The notes: generated from the sequence alone by a model not told the origin. Numbered from the stretch's first letter, positions 32,703-56,798 are shown. The stretch is DNA of 64,000 nt from Escherichia coli (GCF_048403405.1 NZ_CP183129.1), one strand, 5' to 3'. Numbers and translations: made by a program.

Positions 32703-33893
32703 TTAATTGCTGTTAACCGAGGTGACCAGATTTGCCAGGTATTTATCGGTAATACGCTGGCGCAGGGTCAGGTTTTCGAGAGGAGGCACCGGTGTATAGT
32801 CGTAGTCGATATACAGTTTTCCGGCCTTGAGGGTTTCCGCATCGTTGGATTCTTCGCTGAACCAGCAGGTCGCATCCACGATATAGCCGTTTGTTTTCAG
32901 CTCACGGAATTTGGCATTGATACCGTCAACGATGTCGCGAATCAGCGTTGCGGTGATGGGCTTGTCCACCGCCCACATGTGCGCCTCAGCCATCGTGTCG
33001 GCCAGCACCTGCGCGGTGCGGGTGTAGTTTTCAAAGAGGAACAGCGGGTCATCAGAGCAGGTACGGTTACCCCAGAAGCGGAAACCGTCGCGGCGAATCA
33101 GCGTAGTGACGCCTGACTCGTTAAGCAGGTCAGCATCGGTGCCGGACTCCTGCAAATCCCAGAATACAGATGCACTGATGCCGGTAACACCGTTCACCCC
33201 AACGTTGGACAGCGTTTTATGCCAGCCCTGCTCCTGGTCGATTTTAGCGCGCAGCCCCAGCGCACGGGCAGTGGCATACGCGGTGGCGGTGGTACTGGTG
33301 ACCGTATCCCATGCGAGGAAATCCGGCCAGATGACCATCAGCTCACGCTGGCTGAAATTCTGGCGGTAGGCTTTCACCTCAGAAATGGTTTTACAGCCCC
33401 ATGCGCTGATATACCCGAAAGCGCGCAGCTTCTGACAGACTGATGCCAGTGCAACAGCCACCTCTTTGGTATCCAGTCCCGGCACGCCGAGAATACGCGG
33501 TTTAACACCGGTTACCGACTCCGCCGCCAGCAGGGCTTTCAGTCCGGTGTACTGACCGTTTTCGTCGGTGGTACCGATGATATTGGAAACGGTCTGCGCA
33601 AGTTTCGTTTCTTCGTCGTCGCCGGTGCCGTCTTCCACGCGCACAACAACGGTGACCGGTTTTGACTGGTCAGCGATGGCCTGTAACGACGCCGCCAGCG
33701 TGCCTTTTTTACCGGCCTTTGCAATTGCGCTCTGCACATTGGTAATCAGCACCGGTTTATTGAGGGGGAAGGTTTCCGCATCTGCATCGCTGGCCGTGCA
33801 GACCATGCCGACAATGGCAGTGGATACGGTGGAAATGACGCGGGTGCCGTCGTTAATCTCCAGCACCTGCACGCCGTGATGATAGTCACTCAT
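32703..33893 (-). CDS. FI: Contractile tail sheath protein gpFI
   Basis: ORF 32703..34007 was trimmed to MSDYHHGVQVLEINDGTRVISTVSTAIVGMV (396 aa), with GGAG 8 nt upstream. P2 FI. Confidence 0.93.
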   Translation of the reverse strand: MSDYHHGVQVLEINDGTRVISTVSTAIVGMVCTASDADAETFPLNKPVLITNVQSAIAKAGKKGTLAASLQAIADQSKPVTVVVRVEDGTGDDEETKLAQTVSNIIGTTDENGQYTGLKALLAAESVTGVKPRILGVPGLDTKEVAVALASVCQKLRAFGYISAWGCKTISEVKAYRQNFSQRELMVIWPDFLAWDTVTSTTATAYATARALGLRAKIDQEQGWHKTLSNVGVNGVTGISASVFWDLQESGTDADLLNESGVTTLIRRDGFRFWGNRTCSDDPLFLFENYTRTAQVLADTMAEAHMWAVDKPITATLIRDIVDGINAKFRELKTNGYIVDATCWFSEESNDAETLKAGKLYIDYDYTPVPPLENLTLRQRITDKYLANLVTSVNSN

Positions 33894-33966
33894 CCGTCTA
33901 ACTCCGTGGTTAATGGGTGAGTGGTATTTTCTGTTGTGCAGAGCATGAGACGCTATTTGACCTGGC

Positions 33967-33987
33967 TGGTCAGTGGATGAAACAACA
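33967..33987 (-). promoter_or_regulatory. Candidate Ogr-responsive element of late promoter PF
   Basis: The minus strand reads TGTTGTTTCATCCACTGACCA, about 84 nt upstream of the FI ATG. It shares the TGTTGT-N12-(C/A)CA pattern with the sites upstream of V and O. P2 late promoters carry a TGT-N12-ACA-like dyad near -55. Confidence 0.4.
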
Positions 33988-33990
33988 GAT

Positions 33991-34013
33991 AAAGAAAAGG
34001 CGGACAATCCGCC
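33991..34013 (-). terminator. Rho-independent terminator closing the V-to-G / cargo transcription unit
   Basis: The minus strand reads GGCGGA-TTG-TCCGCC followed by TTTTCTTT, located between the Z/fun-position cargo and the PF element. Confidence 0.6.
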
Positions 34014-34223
34014 CGCCTGTCATGATTTGTACTCACTTATTTCCCGACTGACAATTTACATAGCCAAAACGCTATCAAATCTGACAGTCTGCTTTGAGCG
34101 AGGAGCGGAAGTTAAGGGGCGGTTTAGTATCTAACATGATCTATATGAAATAGTGATTCTTGGCGTATTGCTAATACAACCCCGATTTGATGTAACTCTT
34201 GTCCACTTTCATCTAACTTCCTC

Positions 34224-34253
34224 TTGTTCAGGTTCATTTTTAACTGCTAATAT
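34224..34253 (+). promoter_or_regulatory. Candidate sigma-70 promoter for the HNH cargo gene
   Basis: TTGTTC (34224..34229), an 18-nt spacer, then TAATAT (34248..34253), about 100 nt upstream of ATG 34354. Pattern match only. Confidence 0.3.
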
Positions 34254-34353
34254 GCAGTATATAAAGGAACATGGGTTTACCGTTGTAAGATGCTGCTGAA
34301 AGGTAAGCATAATTATATTGTTAGGTGTCTTTTTATTTTTAAAGGCTTTAAAC

Positions 34354-35460
34354 ATGTCTAAAACACGCGATGATTTCAGCTCAAAAACTGTAAGAGCTCT
34401 AGCACTACGGGCTGGTTATAGGTGCTCATTCCCCGGTTGTAATCAGCTTACAGTTGGCCCCAGTGATGAATCCTTAACATCTATCACAAATATTGGGGTA
34501 GCTGCGCACATTCATGCCGCAGCTCCTGGGCCATTAGCAAGACGATATGATCCTAATCAAACACCAGATGAAAGGAAAGATATAAATAATGGCATCTGGA
34601 TGTGTGTTAATCACAGCGTTGAAATTGATAGAGATGAAATTAGATATACAGCAGAAATTCTTAAAGAAATGAAGAAAGCCCACGAAGAAGAGATTAAAAA
34701 AGAGGTGAGCAATGGTTCTTCATCAACCAAACATAATGATTTCATTGCAATAGGTATAGACATTATCGTTTTCGGAGAGCTTACCGGAATCTCAACCAAT
34801 GAGTGGACTATAAAATTTGCAAACTTCTTTACTGGCGATTTATCTAAGTTAATATCTTTCAACGAAAGATTCCACTCCATCCCTACCGAAGAAAAATTTA
34901 TTCTAGTTAATCAACTTGGTGAGGGGCGTTTGTTATCAGCACCAATAAAATTAAATAAATTACCAGATAGCTATGAAGTAATCGTCCCTGTTGAAATAGA
35001 CACTCCGCGCATCAATTGCAATAGCCTCCCAATGGATTTAGATATTTTCACGACAGGCGATTTATTTGTAAATAGTTCTGGTGATATAGCTACGATATCG
35101 GGGTTTGAAGCTTTACCACAAAAAATATATACTTCCCTTTCCACCATTAGAGGTGAGATTTATTCCCATCCAACATTGGGTTCCAGAATAAGACAGTTCT
35201 TCCATGACTTTGAAGGAACAATGTGGCTAGACAAATTAGTTAAATTAGAAGTTATACGCTTATCTTGTATACCAATTTTTGATTCAATCACAAAAAACAA
35301 ATACACTCCATTACATTGTGTAAAAAATGTCAAAAATATTCGGGTGATACCAACTGAATATAAAGATAGCAAATTACCTATTGAGTTCACCCTTGATATT
35401 GAAGGTTTCGGCATCTGGTCCAAAGAAATAAGTGTTTTCTCACCTAAATACGATGAATAA
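34354..35460 (+). CDS. Cargo protein: N-terminal HNH-type nuclease motif fused to a gpW/gp25-like C-terminal region
   Basis: ORF 34318..35460 was trimmed to ATG 34354 (MSKTRDDF, AAAGG 9 nt upstream; 368 aa). The HNH-like pattern is C-x4-C (CSFPGC) ... GVAAHIHAA ... NGIWMCVNHSVEIDRD. The C-terminal FEALPQKIYTSLSTIRGEIYSHPTLGSRIRQFFHD aligns by eye with this phage's own gpW LEHISQSIGDILRTPVGSRVMRRDYGSLLASMID. The gene is AT-rich and antisense to the flanking late genes. Confidence 0.6.
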   Translation: MSKTRDDFSSKTVRALALRAGYRCSFPGCNQLTVGPSDESLTSITNIGVAAHIHAAAPGPLARRYDPNQTPDERKDINNGIWMCVNHSVEIDRDEIRYTAEILKEMKKAHEEEIKKEVSNGSSSTKHNDFIAIGIDIIVFGELTGISTNEWTIKFANFFTGDLSKLISFNERFHSIPTEEKFILVNQLGEGRLLSAPIKLNKLPDSYEVIVPVEIDTPRINCNSLPMDLDIFTTGDLFVNSSGDIATISGFEALPQKIYTSLSTIRGEIYSHPTLGSRIRQFFHDFEGTMWLDKLVKLEVIRLSCIPIFDSITKNKYTPLHCVKNVKNIRVIPTEYKDSKLPIEFTLDIEGFGIWSKEISVFSPKYDE

Positions 35461-35929
35461 AATTGAAGTTCTTGAACCGCTATATTTGGCTCCGGTATTT
35501 ACTCCGTGAGTGGTATCCTAGGGCCCTGTGCGGAGGATTTCATTGTAATGCTCATACGCTGTAGCCAGGTTCATGTTTCTTCAGCAAGGCCATTTGGGCT
35601 AGTGGCCTGCTCCCCATTGCTCCACACAAAAAATTATTCGTTACGTCCGCTCCTGGCACACAGTAGACATCGAGAGACAGCTTCGAGCGATAATCAGAAG
35701 TTCGCAATTGTCATCACCCAAAAGTTGTTTATAACTTGTAGCAAGGTGCATTGTTCAACGTTGAGTTGGTCAAGTTCAGTTAATGATCGGACGATATCTC
35801 ACTCTGCCCAATAGCACATCTGTTTTACGGGAAGTGAGTTTCAACATCACGAGCTTTGTTAGTAAACATCACTTATTTATTAAGAATATGTTTCATAGAA
35901 CAGGGCCGGAGAACTTAATTTCATATTCT

Positions 35930-35954
35930 AAAAAGTGATGCGCAGACATCACTT
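35930..35954 (-). terminator. Rho-independent terminator after the HExxH cargo gene
   Basis: The minus strand reads AAGTGATG-TCTGCG-CATCACTT followed by TTTAG (TTTTT run), 30 nt after the stop at 35984. Confidence 0.65.
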
Positions 35955-35983
35955 TAAACTTTTTAAAGCGCGAAAACCCTACG

Positions 35984-36985
35984 TCAGAATTTGACAGTAG
36001 GAACGGTTGGCCAGATTCTAGCAATAGACTTAAACATAGTCTCCACAATATATTCGAGAACCTCATCATCAGGCTCTTTCATTAATGCTTTTACTTTATT
36101 TATTCTATCCTGAAGTGAAGGGTGAGATTTTGAAAAACCCCAGTTGTTTTTACCTAACATAGTAACGCTGAATAATGCACAGTATATAGAAAGTCTTCTT
36201 TTCCTGCTCACCAACACACGGTCATACATAGACTCTTCACAGTAATTATCTATATGGTCAAGGATGAATTTATTTGCAAACTCATCACATGAGAACTCTT
36301 CATTATGAGCTTGTTCTTGTGTGAATTCATTCATATCATAACTGGTACCTTCCTGCTGATGAATGATATGTCGGACTTCATGCAAAAATGCCCAAGCAGC
36401 AGCAATAATTGCTAATTCAGCTGTTGCTCTTTTAACTGGTTCGATTTTACTGTCAGGCATGGTGCCAGGTTCAGGAATTCCTATTGGTAGTGGTTTTTCA
36501 TCCGGTACCTCATCTTTAGCCGTGTTTTCAAAAGCGCAGATTAACTGTTCAAAGTTTACGAAGTCTGCCGAACTGAAATCAGCAAGTTCTTCCTGTAGCT
36601 CCTCGAGTAAAACATGTAATTCTGACTCGGTTGAGACTAATGATATTTTCTTTGAGTCAAAAAGATCTAAAATAGAATCCCTTTTATCGATAATGTCTTC
36701 AATTTTTTTATTTTGCTCAGTGTTTATTGCTTCGTAGCCCGCCATTGCAGCAAATGTTCCTATCCAGAACGTGCGCAAAACACGATGATTGAAGCGGATA
36801 AATCGATACATCCCCGCATCAAAAATAAATTTACCGTCTGTATGATTATCGCTATGATTTTGGAAGGTCATGTTAAATTTAGACCAGAACTCATCCAGTT
36901 CATTCTGACGCTCTGGAATAGAGGCTAAAAACATTTTTCTTACGCTGTCCTGAACTGTTTTATCTTCATTATGCTCTTCAAACAT
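35984..36985 (-). CDS. Cargo protein with C-terminal ImmA/IrrE-like (HExxH) metallopeptidase motif
   Basis: ORF 35984..37045 (TTG start) was trimmed to ATG 36985 (MFEEHNEDKTV, AGGTGAG 5 nt upstream; 333 aa). The motif FLHEVRHIIHQ followed about 25 residues later by EEFSCDEFANKFIL resembles the HExxH...ExxANxFA signature of COG2856/M78 peptidases. AT-rich. Confidence 0.55.
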   Translation of the reverse strand: MFEEHNEDKTVQDSVRKMFLASIPERQNELDEFWSKFNMTFQNHSDNHTDGKFIFDAGMYRFIRFNHRVLRTFWIGTFAAMAGYEAINTEQNKKIEDIIDKRDSILDLFDSKKISLVSTESELHVLLEELQEELADFSSADFVNFEQLICAFENTAKDEVPDEKPLPIGIPEPGTMPDSKIEPVKRATAELAIIAAAWAFLHEVRHIIHQQEGTSYDMNEFTQEQAHNEEFSCDEFANKFILDHIDNYCEESMYDRVLVSRKRRLSIYCALFSVTMLGKNNWGFSKSHPSLQDRINKVKALMKEPDDEVLEYIVETMFKSIARIWPTVPTVKF

Positions 36986-37248
36986 TTGCTCACCTATATT
37001 GCTGTTAATTTTATCTAATGATGAACCGAGTGGGTTGTTTACCAAGCCTCATGTTACATGTTTTTTGCTTTCCGAATATTTAAGCGTTAGAAGCAAGTAG
37101 GAAAAACGTAGAGCAGTTAACCAAGGCTTTCTACAGGCAGATTAACATAACTTGGTCAGGAATGTCCGCTCTTGGCACATAGCGGACTGTCAGATTAGGC
37201 TTTACTCTGTGCTATAGATATGTAAGCTCACACCAGAGATCATACAAC

Positions 37249-37776
37249 TTATTGCGGCATTTCCGGCCATTCGGGATTTGCAGGATCCACACGACTGACC
37301 AGAACGCTGTAGCGTTCCCATGCTTCCAGTCGGCTGCGTTCCTCATCCGTCGCCATATTCAGCCTGACAGCGCGTTCCAGCGGCAAAATCACGGATTCAG
37401 CTTCGGAAAGTAAAGCTGCCTTTTGTGATTCTGCCTGTTGCTCCTGTTCATCTGCCGTATAAATCCGCTTAATCACGGCACCATCCTTAAACATCCATTT
37501 ACCTGAGTCATCAGCACGTCGGTTGGAGGTAATATCAGGAACCTCGACAACGCTGAAACCTTCAGGGTTAAGCGTTGAAGCATCTCTGGTGATGCCGACA
37601 ATTATATTATTCTCGTCGTAAACAATCTTTATCGTGTCTTCCTGAAAATTACTTACTTCCTCATACCAGTTTTTTCCCTCTTCGGACCATAACCAGATAA
37701 CATCAAAATTTTTTGTCAGTTGATATTGGGCAACAGTTTTTGGATTACCCGCAGTAATATTTTTTAAATGCTGCAT
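37249..37776 (-). CDS. G: Tail fibre assembly chaperone gpG
   Basis: 175-aa [43 protein letters not shown]... Directly downstream of H. P2 G length. Confidence 0.9.
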
Positions 37777-41271: not shown

Positions 41272-41619
41272 TCAACTCACAGGGATGGTTAATGAAAGTG
41301 GCTGGCCGGTGTCGTTGTGCTGGCCGGTTAACGTGACCGTCATTCGCCCGTCAAAGCTGCGCGCCGTGGTAACGGATGACAGGGTGACGCGGGGTTCCCA
41401 TTTCAGCACCGCCATGTAACAGGCGACCTTAATCTGCAACTCAAGCGCCGGGGTCTGCGGCTGGTCAATCATTGACGCCAGCAACGAGCCGTAATCACGA
41501 CGCATCACCCGTGAGCCGACCGGCGTGCGCAGGATATCGCCGATACTCTGGCTGATATGCTCAAGGTCAGTGACAGTCAGGCCATCACTGCGATTCATTC
41601 CGAGATAACGCGCTGTCAT
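41272..41619 (-). CDS. W: Baseplate wedge protein gpW (gp25-like)
   Basis: 115-aa ORF MTARYLGMNRSDGLTVTDLEHISQSIGDILRTPVGSRVMRRDYGS... P2 W. Confidence 0.92.
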   Translation of the reverse strand: MTARYLGMNRSDGLTVTDLEHISQSIGDILRTPVGSRVMRRDYGSLLASMIDQPQTPALELQIKVACYMAVLKWEPRVTLSSVTTARSFDGRMTVTLTGQHNDTGQPLSLTIPVS

Positions 41620-42340: not shown

Positions 42341-43126
42341 ATGGTCAGCTATAATGTGACTAATGTGTGGGGGCTAATCGTTTTTTTCCTTTGTAGCTTT
42401 GCAGTATTAGCATTTTTTAGCTTTGGTAAAAGTAACCTTATGAGGCTTATTGCACATTATTTCAATTTTGGATATTCAGACAAAAAATTAAAAAGACTTG
42501 ACCGCGAGTGGCGCGACATTCAACTATTTAAAATAATTAATGGAATCAATGTATCAGGCATTGAAAATGTGAGAATGATACAGCAGGGACTGATTGATGG
42601 AAAACTAAAAACATCGTATTTTTTCCTTACTCGCATCTGGGGTGACATAACAAAACCACCACACATAATTAAAACAATAATTGTAATTCTGGCCAGTATT
42701 TTTTACATTCTCCTCGCATGTTACATACACAACGAACAATCCGTTATAGTAAGGGATGCCATAGGCATACCATATAAAAACATGATGTACTATGTTTATA
42801 GTGACAAAGTTCTTTTATCCTTCAAAAATAAAGCAGTTGAATTTAATAAAACTTATAGCCTTGCCGATTGCAAGAGACTGCAAAACGTATTTATAAAAGA
42901 CACACTTCCTGAGATCGCCTGCAATAAGCTCTTACAGCTAAACGAGGAGGACTCCGAATGGTTAAGCCAGGAGATTAAAGATAATAACAGTCACAAAAAA
43001 GCATTATTAATACTATCCCTCGTCTATTTCACTTCAGGTCTGGTTATATTCCTGTCATATACAAAATTCTTTTACGCCAATAAGAAGGTTTTAGAATACA
43101 AAGCATCAAATAAAAATCACTCATAA
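42341..43126 (+). CDS. AT-rich cargo membrane protein (3 predicted TM segments) at the P2 orf30 position
   Basis: 261-aa ORF with a strong SD (AAGGAG 6 nt upstream). Hydrophobic segments are VWGLIVFFLCSFAVLAFFSF, IIKTIIVILASIFYILLACYI and ALLILSLVYFTSGLVIFLSY. It is antisense to the flanking late genes S and V. Confidence 0.6.
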   Translation: MVSYNVTNVWGLIVFFLCSFAVLAFFSFGKSNLMRLIAHYFNFGYSDKKLKRLDREWRDIQLFKIINGINVSGIENVRMIQQGLIDGKLKTSYFFLTRIWGDITKPPHIIKTIIVILASIFYILLACYIHNEQSVIVRDAIGIPYKNMMYYVYSDKVLLSFKNKAVEFNKTYSLADCKRLQNVFIKDTLPEIACNKLLQLNEEDSEWLSQEIKDNNSHKKALLILSLVYFTSGLVIFLSYTKFFYANKKVLEYKASNKNHS

Positions 43127-52375: not shown

Positions 52376-52402
52376 AGTTGGCGGAATGCAATCCCGCCAA
52401 CT
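52376..52402. terminator. Bidirectional stem-loop between convergent Q and the 2-TM gene
   Basis: agttggcgg (52376..52384) / ccgccaact (52394..52402), a 9-bp perfect stem with a 9-nt loop and A/T-rich flanks. Confidence 0.55.
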
Positions 52403-52405
52403 TAA

Positions 52406-53113
52406 CTATATATACTTCCTTTTTACTCTACTTAATTCTATCACTGATGAGGAGTGACAAAATGACAAATTAATAGTATCGATATAATCCAAAATTTGAC
52501 TCTCAACCTCAATAAAAATATTTTTGGGCCCATTACTAATCGATATACCGATTTCATCCAAAACAGCCATCATTTTTCTCTGATGAGTTTTATATTTATA
52601 GTCTTTATTTTCCTCTGTAATATGTGCATTGGCTTCCTCAATAACACATTTGATTCTAGATATTATTTCTAGATAATCTCTCGAAACAGATATATCACCG
52701 CCTTGCGCTTCAGGGAACATAACCCTATACCATCTAAAAAAATTAACTTTCTCTGGATAGATGCTACTTCTTTTAGTTAACTCAGCACTTGCAAATTCTC
52801 TAAACATCGTCAGATGACTAGTGTAATTACTATTATTATTATTTTTAACTCCAGCGTTATATGTCATCAAAGCAATCATAACACCAAAAACGGTAACAAA
52901 AGTTGTTATAAGCCATCCAAACGCCTGAAAATACATTACTATACCAGATGTTTTTTCCGCAAAAAATTTTAAGCACTGGCTATCGAAGCATATATCACGC
53001 TCATATAGCTTTTCATTCTGAATAGTTTCAAAAAGAGAAATTAGCGAAAAAATCAAAAAAAGAGCTGACGACACACCGACAATATATTTGAGAAGTCTAA
53101 TATTTGCATTCAT
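52406..53113 (-). CDS. Two-transmembrane protein translationally coupled to the RT (candidate effector)
   Basis: 235-aa ORF. TM1 is YIVGVSSALFLIFSLISLF and TM2 is IVMYFQAFGWLITTFVTVFGVMIALMTY, followed by a soluble C-terminal ~150 aa. The ATG overlaps the RT stop (ATGA at 53110..53113). AT-rich. Confidence 0.7.
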   Translation of the reverse strand: MNANIRLLKYIVGVSSALFLIFSLISLFETIQNEKLYERDICFDSQCLKFFAEKTSGIVMYFQAFGWLITTFVTVFGVMIALMTYNAGVKNNNNSNYTSHLTMFREFASAELTKRSSIYPEKVNFFRWYRVMFPEAQGGDISVSRDYLEIISRIKCVIEEANAHITEENKDYKYKTHQRKMMAVLDEIGISISNGPKNIFIEVESQILDYIDTINLSFCHSSSVIELSRVKRKYI

Positions 53114-54300
53114 AATGGTTTTAAAGATGCCAATCTAGATTTAAAACACTCCAGTTTTTCTTTAAATGATTCAGAGCGAGTAAGAATAATCATCTTATAT
53201 CTCGTCAAATCATATTTTCTTTTATACCAATGTTTATTTTGATTACCTTTCGAATACGACAACTCTAAACTTTTTATAGCTGCATCAATCACAGCAACAT
53301 CTCTTTTAGATGGCATCGGTTTTATTGCCTGCAACTGTTTCTTGAATGATTCATATTTTTCATGCCCAACACGGCCAAGCTTATTCACTCTCCCCATACA
53401 TCTATTGAATTCTTTTCTGTATGCAACACTTGTTTTTGTGTTATTTTTTGCCGCCAGTAATTTCAAATTATGTATAGATGCCCTGATTCTTTTGACTTCA
53501 TCGGATGGTAGTCGAGGTGAGTCATAGTCAACTCTTAAACCATGTACTTTTATAGGTTCAGATGAACAGTGAAATATTTTTGTTTTGTGCTTATTTATCG
53601 GCAAGTCATGCTCAGAAAGCATCCTCTCTATATGGCTTTGCATTTGAGAAAAATCATAATTACTTATTTTAGATGACACGGTAATATCATCTACCAAACG
53701 CGTATAAACAAGTCCTTTCCTCTGCGCACGTCTTACCACATCCCCTTCAACAGCGAATAAACACAAAGTTGCTATATAGCTTGATGTTAAGGCCCCCTGT
53801 ACGACAAAATCATCCTTAGTACATATATCCACCAAGTATTCAAGAGCCTCATCCTTAATATGCAATATCTCCTCAAACACGCTCCTAACCAGATCTCTAT
53901 GGATATTATCGAAAAAATTACTTATATCCACCTTGAGAACTGTTTTTGCTCCACAATGAGCCTTTGCACATGAAACATAGTCACGTTTGACATTAGAATT
54001 TAAAACATCATTTTTACTGGGAACTGAACCAAACAAAAATGAAGGAAAAACAACCAATTCCTTAAAAATACGTTTATTAATTCTACTCTGTAATAATCTC
54101 ATTTTAGGATGTAGGGAGTAGACAATCCGTTTGCTTCCGTCAATTTTGGGAATTTCTTTTAGAGTATATTTCTCATCTAATGATAATTCTGCAATAGCTT
54201 TAAGCTCTTCAACAGAAATCGATAAAGCCTTTGACAACTTTTCAAGTGTTGTGATAGGAGCATTGGATTTGCTGTATGGTTTAAATTTATCCATAAACAT
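53110..54300 (-). CDS. Retron-like reverse transcriptase
   Basis: RT motifs read from the ORF: KIDGSKRIVYSLHP (motif 1), LLQSRINKRI (2), VLKVDISNFFDNI (A), QGALTSSYIATLCL (B), YTRLVDDITVSS (C, YxDD-type), INKHKTKIF (D/E) and VHGLRV (a retron VTG-like position). The N-terminal LEKLSKALSISVEELKAIA segment is as in retron RTs. The start is ambiguous: ATG 54300 or 54294 is favoured, with ATG 54336 or TTG 54384 possible. Confidence 0.8.
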   Translation of the reverse strand: MFMDKFKPYSKSNAPITTLEKLSKALSISVEELKAIAELSLDEKYTLKEIPKIDGSKRIVYSLHPKMRLLQSRINKRIFKELVVFPSFLFGSVPSKNDVLNSNVKRDYVSCAKAHCGAKTVLKVDISNFFDNIHRDLVRSVFEEILHIKDEALEYLVDICTKDDFVVQGALTSSYIATLCLFAVEGDVVRRAQRKGLVYTRLVDDITVSSKISNYDFSQMQSHIERMLSEHDLPINKHKTKIFHCSSEPIKVHGLRVDYDSPRLPSDEVKRIRASIHNLKLLAAKNNTKTSVAYRKEFNRCMGRVNKLGRVGHEKYESFKKQLQAIKPMPSKRDVAVIDAAIKSLELSYSKGNQNKHWYKRKYDLTRYKMIILTRSESFKEKLECFKSRLASLKPL

Positions 54301-54552
54301 ACCATTCAAATTCAAAGTTACGTACGGTCTTCCCATACTCAAGGGTGGAACAGCAGAGATGCTTACATCAACAATTGTCAGCAACAGCCTCTGCTATCTT
54401 TCGACCGTACGTAATGTCGTCGGCTACGGCACCATCGTAGTTGACGACGGTGGGGCCTCGCTGATAGGTCCATAGTGGACGCTTTTTTGTAAAAGCAAAA
54501 ACTGACAATTTAATGTTGTTGACTGCCGCATACCAAGCGAATCGCTGGTGCG
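54301..54552 (-). ncRNA. Candidate structured non-coding leader (possible retron msr-msd) upstream of the RT
   Basis: About 250 nt lie between a predicted promoter and the RT ATG, with no credible ORF and dense inverted repeats. These are a 12-bp perfect IR 54318..54329/54403..54414, a compound hairpin 54416..54448 (GTCGTC-AA-CTACG-loop-CGTAG-CC-GACGAC), a 9-bp IR 54373..54381/54502..54510 and a 7-bp IR 54352..54358/54389..54395. I could not assign a1/a2 or the branching G uniquely. Confidence 0.35.
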
Positions 54553-54558
54553 CTAAGA

Positions 54559-54587
54559 ATAATGCAACAAAAAAATAAGAATTTCAA
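54559..54587 (-). promoter_or_regulatory. Candidate sigma-70 promoter for the RT leader
   Basis: The minus strand reads TTGAAA (54587..54582), a 17-nt spacer, then CATTAT (54564..54559). The predicted start is near 54552, within ...TCTTAGCGCACC. Confidence 0.35.
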
Positions 54588-54625
54588 CCGGGTAACTGCA
54601 AGCCAGCGACATCGTTTAGCGCGCA

Positions 54626-54644
54626 GTGCTTTCCCCGCCTCGCC
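54626..54644 (-). other. cos cohesive-end sequence (P2-type 19-mer)
   Basis: The plus strand gtgctttccccgcctcgcc is the exact reverse complement of GGCGAGGCGGGGAAAGCAC, the P2 cohesive end as I remember it. It sits in a GC-rich block (about 54590..54780) with repeats ccgg[a/c]acatgcaa at 54720..54732 and 54735..54747. Confidence 0.8.
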
Positions 54645-54805
54645 CGCCCGCTTCGTGGGGCGGTTTTAATGCAGGTGCAATACCGCTTTTGAGCCACGCC
54701 CGTCCTGGCGGACGCACGGCCGGAACATGCAACTCCGGCACATGCAAAACCATGCACATATTGCACGCAGAAAGATAAATGCCAAAATACCTAAATCAAC
54801 TTCCA

Positions 54806-56644
54806 TTAATCAGCCAGATAAGGTTCAACTTTATCTTCCCATACACTAAATAAAGGCAAACAAGTTAAATAAAAGATAAAGACACAGGCAAAAACTGAAG
54901 TTGGTTGATAACAATGATTTACAGTATACCTGCCATGAGCCATCGTGTGTCTAATTGCAGCACCACCTTTCATATTGAACAATAAATCCATAGTCAATAC
55001 ATGATCACTATCAAAAACACCTTCCATTTCACTCCTATAATTTGCAAGCATTTGAGATAGGCTAGTAGCCTCCTCAAAAAGCGACACATCTATTTTCGTT
55101 GTTTCTTTTCTTCTTAATTCTAAAATCCATCTAATTGAATTCTCCAATTGCGGCAATAACAAATAACAGGCAGACACATAATCTCCCTGCCAAAGCTTAT
55201 AAAACCCCAAAGAAAATATTTCTGCATACCCAGGTGGAACAAATGCACTTTGTTGTGAGATTGGGTCAAATGTATTTTCATTTAATGAATACCTAGCCAA
55301 CACACTTTGCCTAACGACTTCAAACTCACCACAAACATAGACCTGATGCTCAATGTTACTAGTTCTTAAATAATTTGCACAAGCATCATTTAAACTTATA
55401 TCCCCCGCAGGATCCAAAGGTGAACGACTTGCTACAACGCGCCCTCTATCATCATAAACAACCGTTTCACTCATATTAAGAAAAAAATGTTTTTTAGCAT
55501 CGGAACGAGCTCTTTCCATAATTTCACTGGCACTTACAATCTTAAATCTAGCAATTAAAGTTTTAATTACCCTTGAGAAATCCAATTGATTATAAACATG
55601 CTCTTTCTGAGCGATAACATCACTAAGATCCATTGGTATTGCAAAGAAGTGCATTTCATCATTGATTTGATCTCGAATAGAATTCAATTCCTCTCTAATC
55701 TTTTTAATTTCTTCATTCATTCCACCAATTGCTCTAAATTCGCCAAGAGCAACTCTTAACCAATGAGCCTTCAATATTGAAGATGAAGACTGTTCAAATT
55801 GAGCCAATGTTATTTCTGACGCTTTAATTCTGCACCGTCTTCCTTGCTCTTCCATATCGTTTTTAACATATAATTCAGACGCAAAATAAAACAATTTTTT
55901 CACTGCATCAAAATAAGACGCTCCACAATGCTCATCAGCTATCTTTTCTGCATTCTCAGCCAATTGCAAGGGACACAATAAATTATTCTTATAAAGAATT
56001 TCAGAAACTCTTAATACACCGGTGAATATACCAGAGTCTATTAATACATGATATAACCTTAATGTCGAATCAACTATCCCCCCTTGTAGTTGTTTTTTCC
56101 TGCCAATAAGCATGCGCGATATTGCGATACCTCTATCCAAGCAGTCAACAACATCAAAAATATGGATATCACCTGACTCTTGTTTTTCTATTAAAGTATC
56201 GCAAGCATCATTAACCATTAGAGAATATGACTCTATTGCTTTATTGGCAGAGTCTATATCCTTACGGTTATTTATCCATAAAACATCACACACCCTAGAT
56301 ATAATATAAGGATTATCGGAGTTTTCTTTAATACAAGTTAATATTGTTGAAAAACTCTCCTTATAATCTGAAGGCCTATAGCCCCTCTCAGGATAGAGAA
56401 TGATTTTTGGCTCAAAACCGATAATATCACCAGACCTAGAAAATTTAAAATTAAACAACGCACGTAATAAATAGCAAAGCCGCCAAGAACTTACATCGTT
56501 TTTTAGCTTGTAAGATGACAACAACTGAACAAAATAAGACTCCATATCAAAATGAGAATAACTTCTTGGCGATGATAATATACTGGCGTATTCACTTTTT
56601 TTAAAATCATCAACTGAAATAGAAAAAACATCAAACTCGCTCAT
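54806..56644 (-). CDS. 612-aa cargo protein of unknown function with C-terminal R-x4-H (HEPN-like) motif; candidate anti-phage/abortive-infection effector
   Basis: Uninterrupted AT-rich ORF with a strong SD (AAGGTGAGGA immediately upstream of ATG 56644). It is largely helical by composition. I could not find a P-loop, so it is not Old-like. The C-terminus reads YLLLPQLENSIRWILELRR...GGAAIRHTMAHGRY. It occupies the tin/old position between A and cos. Confidence 0.55.
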   Translation of the reverse strand: MSEFDVFSISVDDFKKSEYASILSSPRSYSHFDMESYFVQLLSSYKLKNDVSSWRLCYLLRALFNFKFSRSGDIIGFEPKIILYPERGYRPSDYKESFSTILTCIKENSDNPYIISRVCDVLWINNRKDIDSANKAIESYSLMVNDACDTLIEKQESGDIHIFDVVDCLDRGIAISRMLIGRKKQLQGGIVDSTLRLYHVLIDSGIFTGVLRVSEILYKNNLLCPLQLAENAEKIADEHCGASYFDAVKKLFYFASELYVKNDMEEQGRRCRIKASEITLAQFEQSSSSILKAHWLRVALGEFRAIGGMNEEIKKIREELNSIRDQINDEMHFFAIPMDLSDVIAQKEHVYNQLDFSRVIKTLIARFKIVSASEIMERARSDAKKHFFLNMSETVVYDDRGRVVASRSPLDPAGDISLNDACANYLRTSNIEHQVYVCGEFEVVRQSVLARYSLNENTFDPISQQSAFVPPGYAEIFSLGFYKLWQGDYVSACYLLLPQLENSIRWILELRRKETTKIDVSLFEEATSLSQMLANYRSEMEGVFDSDHVLTMDLLFNMKGGAAIRHTMAHGRYTVNHCYQPTSVFACVFIFYLTCLPLFSVWEDKVEPYLAD

Positions 56645-56798
56645 TCCTCACCTTTAAAGCACTTAACAAACAATCATGGTAAACAATACCAAACTGCAAG
56701 CAACGATTAAATACAGAAAACTCTTTCTGTCGAGATTTTTCAATAACACTAAATATATACAGTACGAAATTATCTAATATTGCGTGAATTTTTGCCAT
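56631..56798 (-). CDS. 55-aa hypothetical protein coupled to A and to the 612-aa gene
   Basis: ORF 56631..56834 was trimmed to ATG 56798 (MAKIHAILDNFVLYIFSVIEKSRQKEF...). This ATG overlaps the A stop (TAATG). Its 3' end overlaps the 612-aa ORF start by 14 nt. It is AT-rich. Coding status is unproven. Confidence 0.4.
   Translation of the reverse strand: MAKIHAILDNFVLYIFSVIEKSRQKEFSVFNRCLQFGIVYHDCLLSALKVRNERV

Follow-up and report, generated by a model that had tools for sequence, protein, structure and literature searches.

The 64,000-nucleotide stretch of Escherichia coli DNA analyzed here (GCF_048403405.1 NZ_CP183129.1; hereafter the window) contains a complete P2-like prophage, which over this stretch is identical in five of 5,426 complete E. 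coli genomes, strain 4621 being one of them. Between the tail sheath gene FI (32703-34007, minus strand; Pfam Phage_sheath_1, E 1.2e-33) and the tail-fiber assembly gene G (37249-37776, minus strand; Pfam Caudo_TAP, E 4.8e-35), which is the Z/fun position of P2, lies an island of approximately 3.1 kb (34113-37164) with a GC content of 37.7%, compared to 53-56% in the flanking tail genes (0.377 versus 0.56 on one side and 0.53 on the other). The island contains two convergent genes, located at 34354-35460 (plus strand) and 35984-37045 (minus strand). The first of these, which encodes a 368-amino acid (aa) protein, runs antisense to FI, G and the late operons, and is present in 5 of the 5,426 complete E. 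coli genomes, is the subject of this report. It combines an HNH nuclease domain with a module resembling two parts of a contractile phage tail, and is a candidate single-gene anti-phage sensor-effector.

The open reading frame (ORF) extends from an ATG at 34354 to a stop codon at 35458-35460, and identical coordinates are annotated by the Prokaryotic Genome Annotation Pipeline (PGAP) and in GenBank entry AJ512680 ('Bacteriophage P2-EC46 proviral Z-region, ORF1 and ORF2'), in which the 368-aa protein appears as ORF2 under the name 'putative lysogenic conversion protein'. PGAP names the product (WP_225403053.1) a 'DUF2634 domain-containing protein' or 'GPW/gp25 family protein', and it also corresponds to phrog_34329. 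Through these annotations the databases already contained the ORF and an indication of the similarity at its C-terminus, but not its function. An original prediction made from the DNA sequence had described an antisense gene of 368 aa with the same limits, carried as cargo in an AT-rich island between FI and G at the P2 Z/fun position. The ORF list, both annotations, the GC contents and the Pfam matches of the flanking genes all agree with that description, and the peptides quoted in it are present in the N-terminal part (CSFPGC at residues 24-29, GVAAHIHAA at 48-56, and NGIWMCVNHSVEIDRD at 79-94) as well as in the C-terminal part (FEALPQKIYTSLSTIRGEIYSHPTLGSRIRQFFHD at 251-285, VKNIRVIP at 326-333, and LPIEFTLDIEGFG at 341-353) of the protein. 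A search of the island for small RNAs or riboswitches returned zero Rfam matches at E<=0.1, and scans of the island for promoters and terminators showed no enrichment.

An AlphaFold2 model computed with 58 homologs (predicted local distance difference test score [pLDDT] 87.9, predicted template modeling score [pTM] 0.83), in which pLDDT values below 50 are restricted to residues 1-3 and to a linker at residues 121-125, indicates that the protein consists of an HNH nuclease and a rigid module of two domains, with a flexible linker between them. The original prediction of a two-part protein, composed of a nuclease and a gp25-like region, was correct for both ends of the polypeptide but overlooked a third, middle domain of 113 residues.

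The HNH nuclease domain (residues 1-121; 34354-34716, plus strand) belongs to the Cap5/SPARHA immune-effector clade. It matches the PADLOC effector models PDC-M68A (9.6e-24), CBASS endonuclease effector (2e-20), SAVED_HNH (5e-18) and the HNH domain of Shedu SduA (2e-16), and when the family profile was compared with the Protein Data Bank (PDB) this part matched the SPARHA HNH-APAZ effector 9om4 (1.9e-15) and Cap5 (2.1e-14). The domain has a beta-beta-alpha-metal fold that superposes on Cap5, with an N-terminal helix at residues 10-19, a cysteine cluster (C24, C29 and C84) and the catalytic residues H52, N79 and H87. Among the 58 homologs (38-84% identity), H52, N79, C24, C29, C84 and D92 do not vary, and H87 is at least 90% conserved. 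In 9om4 and 8ysq the conserved HNH residues correspond to the AHI and N...H positions, which were mutated in a study of these HNH domains (PMC12738770). Taken together, the PADLOC matches, the PDB profile matches and the conserved residues support the nuclease of beta-beta-alpha-metal type that had been proposed for the N-terminus. The HNH domains of Cap5 and SPARHA are close relatives, and each becomes active only once its sensor part drives the formation of a tetramer or filament through the N-terminal helix (PMC12738770). An equivalent helix (residues 10-19) is present in the model of the 368-aa protein. Beyond residue ~125, no SAVED domain was matched in Pfam, PADLOC or fold searches.

The middle domain (residues 124-236; 34723-35061, plus strand) is modeled as a beta-barrel with a putative tail-tube/Hcp-like fold, which would make the tail-like part of the protein a module of two domains. 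We refer to the middle domain as tube-like to describe its predicted fold, since homology to the tail tube is not proven, and a profile search found no sequence-level similarity between it and the prophage tube protein FII or any other ORF in the window.

The C-terminal domain (residues 237-368; 35062-35457, plus strand) has the fold characteristic of sheath initiators of the gp25/GPW/TssE type, which covers the entire domain. Its signature motif, ALPQKIxxxLSxxRGExxxHPxxGSRIxxFF, occupies residues 253-283, and residues 232-283 match Pfam Sheath_initiator (PF10934) at E 9e-4, with a score of 19.7 bits that falls below the gathering score of 32.9. Sheath_initiator is also matched at E<0.01 by 26 of the 58 homologs (best E 1.5e-6). 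In PHROGs, the domain matches 'baseplate protein' phrog_975 (3.9e-9) and 'baseplate wedge subunit' phrog_120 (4.9e-7), while the family profile matches baseplate chains in the PDB at E 1.3e-4 to 1.6e-2, namely phi812 ORF61 (1.3e-4), E217 gp34, Pa193 gp35 and a GPW/gp25 protein. Profile searches, hhalign and the fold thus bear out the gp25/GPW-type C-terminus in the register originally proposed.

The same proposal had likened this region to the prophage's own baseplate protein W (115 aa; 41272-41619, minus strand; Pfam GPW_gp25 2.3e-14, phrog_43 1.1e-52), which serves here for comparison only. When a C-terminal profile built without the 368-aa protein was run against the 536 stop-to-stop ORFs of the window, W ranked first (E 0.022; next 1.4). 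Comparison of the profile with W by hhalign gave E 0.005 over the same segments as the alignment made by eye in the original prediction, and W and the 368-aa protein match the same part of phrog_975. A direct BLASTP comparison of the two proteins was not significant (E 12). The profile ranking, the hhalign result and the shared phrog_975 region, set against the null BLASTP result, indicate that the resemblance and its register are real yet remote, at the level of the family, and that the domain is neither a copy of W nor derived from it. A recent duplicate or chimera of W was accordingly rejected on the BLASTP value. Of the two Pfam branches, PF10934 Sheath_initiator (pyocin PA0617, phi812 ORF61) is closer to the C-terminal domain than PF04965, to which W belongs. 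The gp25-like match to phrog_975 starts near residue 118 of the module and near position 122 of the profile, which has 238 positions (phi812 ORF61 is PDB 9euf_L, 234 aa). Given these start positions, the two domains of the module together are collinear with 'long' sheath initiators like those of Herelleviridae-type phages, and a phage protein of this type may have been the source of the sensor.

Full-length homologs aligning from the ATG onwards number 276 or more at E<1e-3, share 38-49% identity and occur in many Proteobacteria. To characterize the module apart from its nuclease, the tube-like and gp25-like domains alone were used in a HMMER search of 1.84 billion cluster representatives, which recovered 504 representatives, 366 of them at E<1e-10. 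Fusion partners were assessed in the best 150 of the 504: 64 carry this HNH domain, many are fragments, and approximately 35 carry a different non-module region, with the module matched over both of its domains. According to Pfam, the alternative fused domains comprise TIR_2, SEFIR/TIR, class III cyclase (Guanylate_cyc), GGDEF, caspase (Peptidase_C14), calcineurin-like phosphoesterase (Metallophos), Pkinase, Trypsin_2 with SLOG, PNP_UDP_1 and Effector-associated domain 5 (EAD5), and some of the fusions carry transmembrane or helix-turn-helix regions. In PADLOC, alternative effector parts match ThsB, PD-T4-6, Avs1b, a CBASS PN effector, PycC and the Cas10 palm, and PADLOC 2.0 has no model that covers the module itself. 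A conserved domain joined to interchangeable effectors is a recognized signature of sensors in prokaryotic immune and conflict systems. Given its fusion in other bacteria to this range of immune effectors, the tail-like pair probably represents a type of anti-phage sensor that has not been described before.

Several arrangements within and around this family may be mentioned. In a 649-aa protein (P0124) the effector, a class III cyclase, lies at the C-terminus of the module, and two proteins of about 248 aa (P0140 and P0241) consist of the module alone; a 161-aa gene lies 26 bp upstream of P0140, and the two may form a system divided between separate genes. In addition, the HNH subtype of this family (GPSxES...AAHI motif) is found with other C-termini (in L018, L048, L051, L063 and L061, and in L025 and L027). 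The idea that these alternative C-termini are phage-like as well was rejected on inspection by eye, one type being GHKL-ATPase-like (RNxFxHG, DDG, GRGGG) and another ABC-ATPase-like, with Walker-A and ABC signature motifs (GNNGVGKT, LSGGEQ). These HNH fusions look like further uncharacterized single-gene sensor-effector families.

The genomic context of the family was examined in thirteen Pfam-annotated loci and 35 species-representative loci (approximately 48 contexts in all). No tail, extracellular contractile injection system (eCIS) or type VI secretion system (T6SS) genes were found near the homologs in these contexts, and neither they nor the window contained a neighboring cyclase (CD-NTase) gene. 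Clustering of the ORFs within 4 kb at the 35 loci revealed no conserved partner or immunity gene, yielding only synteny among three Gluconobacter species. A copy with 82% identity (P0003, L008) adjoins the P2 replication gene A and a KAP NTPase gene, placing it in the other P2 hotspot (old/tin), and a P2-like Yersinia phage carries a 47%-identical copy beside its integrase. Elsewhere, the neighborhoods include the edge of an integrative and conjugative element with a type IV secretion system, an integrase with a HamA-like gene, DRT5, SIR2-APAZ/prokaryotic Argonaute with DUF4238, an abutting Type ISP restriction enzyme, a Tn7-like element, and methylases with Vsr. The stand-alone module P0241 has as neighbors a transposase and a DISARM-like cluster with ApeA-HEPN, and full-length copies are present on six plasmids. 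A scan for the HNH-motif pattern gave 46 hits in 185,579 species genomes, about 32 of which are full family members, and the hits span at least six phyla, including Pseudomonadota, Myxococcota, Acidobacteriota, Bacteroidota, Verrucomicrobiota and, in one metagenome-assembled genome, Actinomycetota. The gene is therefore a rare, patchy, mobile-element-associated single gene that is not specific to P2.

Within these loci, three divergent lineages (Bradyrhizobium, Acidobacteriaceae and Acidisoma) have a DUF4238 gene as the immediate neighbor of the family gene, each with its own orientation and spacing (L004 8938-9870, L011 8168-9049 and L015 8177-9157; also L060, L049 and L059). The three DUF4238 proteins are 29-36% identical to one another. 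DUF4238 is said to have been validated as a single-gene anti-T7 system in work by Rousset in 2022, and its adjacency could reflect either co-location in defense islands or an occasional functional pairing.

The family displays features that are general to defense systems, namely location in defense islands and mobile-element hotspots, a patchy distribution, and a conserved sensor with interchangeable effectors, and we consider it probable that the 368-aa protein is a sensor-effector protein of defense or conflict. Our preferred reading, to which we give a probability of roughly 0.55, is that it is a stand-alone sensor-effector of the abortive-infection type, carried as prophage defense cargo, in which a baseplate-mimicking module clusters the HNH domain on phage tail parts. 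More tentatively, we propose that mimicry allows the protein to sense a component of a contractile tail, which would be its trigger. It is likewise possible, though somewhat doubtful, that the family as a whole represents a rare but widespread class of immune receptors built from an exapted piece of the baseplate, which detects myoviruses by co-assembling with their tails and relies on the symmetry of tail assembly to cluster the effector.

In such a scheme, the protein would remain idle in the lysogen. The tube and the sheath-initiator parts are adjacent in every contractile-tail baseplate, and once an infecting contractile-tailed phage produced its tail parts the module would mimic this platform and bind its normal docking partner, for which the sheath subunit is a first guess, ahead of wedge proteins of the gp6/J type and the tube initiator. 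A six-fold assembly intermediate could then gather several copies of the protein, and this clustering might allow the HNH domains to form an active oligomer, as in the tetramerization of Cap5 and the filaments of SPARHA. Indiscriminate DNA cutting would abort the infection, and by capping tail assembly the protein may reinforce this outcome.

Several considerations weigh against this reading. The prophage that carries the gene builds a contractile tail of its own (W, FI and FII), and a broad tail sensor would fire when that prophage is induced. The fusions of the module to cyclase, GGDEF and kinase domains could have signaling rather than killing outputs. The PF10934 match of the C-terminal domain, as given above, is below the gathering score. 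The effector swapping strengthens the model of a sensor or decoy for baseplates that was put forward in the original prediction, but this model is still an inferred one.

The likeliest alternative also treats the 368-aa protein as a defense or conflict protein, but regards the tail-like module as an exapted scaffold that senses something other than a tail. Candidate ligands include the state of a host protein (as for the gp25-like IraD), some other protein of the phage, or a small molecule held in the barrel (PilZ-like fold). We regard a non-tail ligand as unlikely, although it merits consideration.

It is very improbable that the protein is a structural or delivered part of a contractile machine, whether an accessory P2 baseplate protein or a nuclease toxin attached by its baseplate-like part to a tailocin, eCIS or T6SS. 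The module does have tail-like folds, HNH and TIR domains are also known from polymorphic toxins, and some real phages possess long sheath initiators that carry an additional domain at the N-terminus (phi812 ORF61, phrog_975). However, the gene is AT-rich, flanked by repeats, antisense to the late operons and found in only 5 of the 5,426 E. coli genomes, and the absence of tail, eCIS or T6SS genes and of a conserved immunity-like neighbor in the ~48 homolog contexts is difficult to reconcile with a part of such a machine. In addition, sheath initiators remain undelivered in the cell that produces them, and the caspase, kinase, cyclase, PNP and EAD5 effectors are typical of intracellular immune systems. 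A role in lysogenic conversion or as a selfish gene, without relation to defense, is equally improbable. Such a gene, for instance a homing-type HNH endonuclease or an addiction module stabilizing the island, would fit the name given by the AJ512680 depositors, the frequency of HNH domains among homing endonucleases and the repeats bounding the island, but not an HNH domain that belongs to the Cap5/SPARHA effector clade rather than with homing enzymes, a sensor module joined to a dozen non-nuclease effectors, or the lack of a conserved antitoxin-like partner.

The second gene of the island (35984-37045, minus strand; the PGAP start at 36985 gives 333 aa) encodes a zinc metalloprotease of the Lit family (Peptidase U49) with the motif HEVRH at residue 222. 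It matches Pfam Peptidase_U49 (PF10463) at 3.7e-6 (27.2 bits versus a gathering score of 23.9), PADLOC Lit at 9.5e-10 and NCBIfam Lit at 3.4e-22 (79 bits versus an equivalog cut-off of 274). Since it falls below this last cut-off, it is a distant member of the Lit family and not Lit itself. Lit is a protease triggered by a capsid peptide, and as the Lit-family gene adjoins the 368-aa gene, two different candidate sensors of late structural proteins lie side by side. A role for Lit as the functional partner of the 368-aa gene was rejected, as Lit is absent beside every other homolog examined; the 333-aa neighbor of the 82%-identical copy P0003 is a KAP NTPase and not Lit, which also counts against a partnership, as does the repeat copy that separates the two island genes. 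A 2026 preprint noted a Lit homolog in a single P2 (bioRxiv 10.64898/2026.02.27.708500), and this P2-like prophage is probably the one described here.

A repeat of about 30 nucleotides with the core GTCYRCTnTGnGCnAGGAGCGGA is present in three copies in the 64-kb window, compared to an expectation of 0, and has no other copy there. One copy, identified by repeat search and given as an inverted repeat in AJ512680, marks the left boundary of the island (34078-34112, plus strand), and two more, recovered by repeat and pattern searches, lie between the two genes (35643-35668, minus strand) and at the right boundary (37165-37196, minus strand; annotated in AJ512680). The presence of the third copy between them suggests that the HNH and Lit genes are independent cassettes whose insertion or exchange took place at one type of site. 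RNA structure in the flanking repeat was not convincing (z -1.0).

Other cargo occurs elsewhere in the prophage. An ORF of 261 aa (42341-43126, plus strand) lies on the opposite strand between the baseplate gene V and a virion-morphogenesis gene. It has no Pfam match, corresponds exactly to phrog_2407 (function unassigned), appears to be rich in hydrophobic segments, and is a probable further moron or cargo gene. The other variable locus, between the portal and replication genes (L007 38407-42646 in the E. coli 4621 prophage; approximately 52400-56650 of the window, by offset), contains a reverse transcriptase of the retron Ec48 family, two effector membrane proteins and a DUF7380 protein. With the retron and DUF7380 at that locus, both P2 hotspots are filled with defense-type cargo.

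The original prediction did not recognize this architecture in any described system, and none was found in PADLOC 2.0 or in searches of the full-text literature. Literature searches for the module or gene (DUF2634/HNH, gp25/HNH/baseplate, sheath initiator in defense, and P2-EC46) returned no prior description and no report of measured protection against phage, and the module is unmentioned in two papers on P2 hotspots (PMC9122126 and bioRxiv 10.64898/2026.02.27.708500). Tail sheath and baseplate parts are among the targets that, according to a 2026 survey of STAND receptors, still lack a known sensor (PMC13581612). The 368-aa protein may thus represent a single-gene sensor-effector defense protein with a new, virus-derived sensor. 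We know of no earlier case in which a sensor is a domesticated copy of the viral structure that it detects.

If the preferred reading, in which tail parts are sensed by mimicry, is correct, a tail fragment would act as bait for assembly intermediates and would be wired to a dozen suicide or signaling effectors, constituting a principle of phage recognition distinct from those of STAND/Avs, CapRel and nucleotide signaling. It would also offer a handle on how late structural proteins beyond the capsid, portal and terminase are sensed, on how Cap5-type HNH domains are activated without a nucleotide signal, and on how a contractile-tailed prophage tolerates its own sensor. The module profile (504 clusters) can be used to annotate 'DUF2634 domain-containing' and 'hypothetical' genes in defense islands, and the finding accounts for the long-deposited, uncharacterized 'lysogenic conversion' ORF of the P2 Z-region.

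Among known proteins, the sheath initiators gp25, GPW, TssE and PA0617 (PF04965, PF10934) share the fold of the C-terminal domain. These are small proteins (approximately 100-140 aa) encoded in tail or T6SS clusters, whereas the present protein is a fusion of 368 aa that is not encoded beside gp6/J or TssF/G, is joined to an effector, scores below the Pfam gathering threshold, and is rare and horizontally scattered, in a prophage that has a genuine W of its own. Because its context and score differ in these ways from those of sheath initiators, we do not class it as a baseplate protein. Polymorphic toxins and effectors delivered by contractile injection systems are accompanied by a cognate immunity gene and by a secretion or injection locus, which were absent from the 35 loci and the ~48 contexts, respectively. 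The E. coli anti-adaptor IraD has a gp25-like fold as well, but is a single domain that regulates RpoS turnover and has no effector, tube-like domain or link to defense islands.

The effector end is similar to those of CBASS Cap5 (HNH-SAVED) and SPARHA HNH-APAZ. In contrast to Cap5, there is no SAVED domain or CD-NTase partner gene, and in contrast to SPARHA, there is no APAZ domain or Argonaute partner gene. Instead, a lone gene encodes a sensor of two phage-tail-like domains, with no sign of a nucleotide or nucleic-acid signal. In its logic, the protein is closest to Avs/STAND, CapRel, bNACHT and Lit, with which it shares a single polypeptide containing the sensor, many alternative effectors (TIR, nuclease, protease), residence in defense islands and prophage hotspots, and a presumed trigger that is a conserved late structural protein of the phage. 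It differs from Avs/STAND and CapRel in having neither a STAND/NTPase module nor a toxin-antitoxin architecture, and in a sensor that is apparently derived from the structure of the phage.

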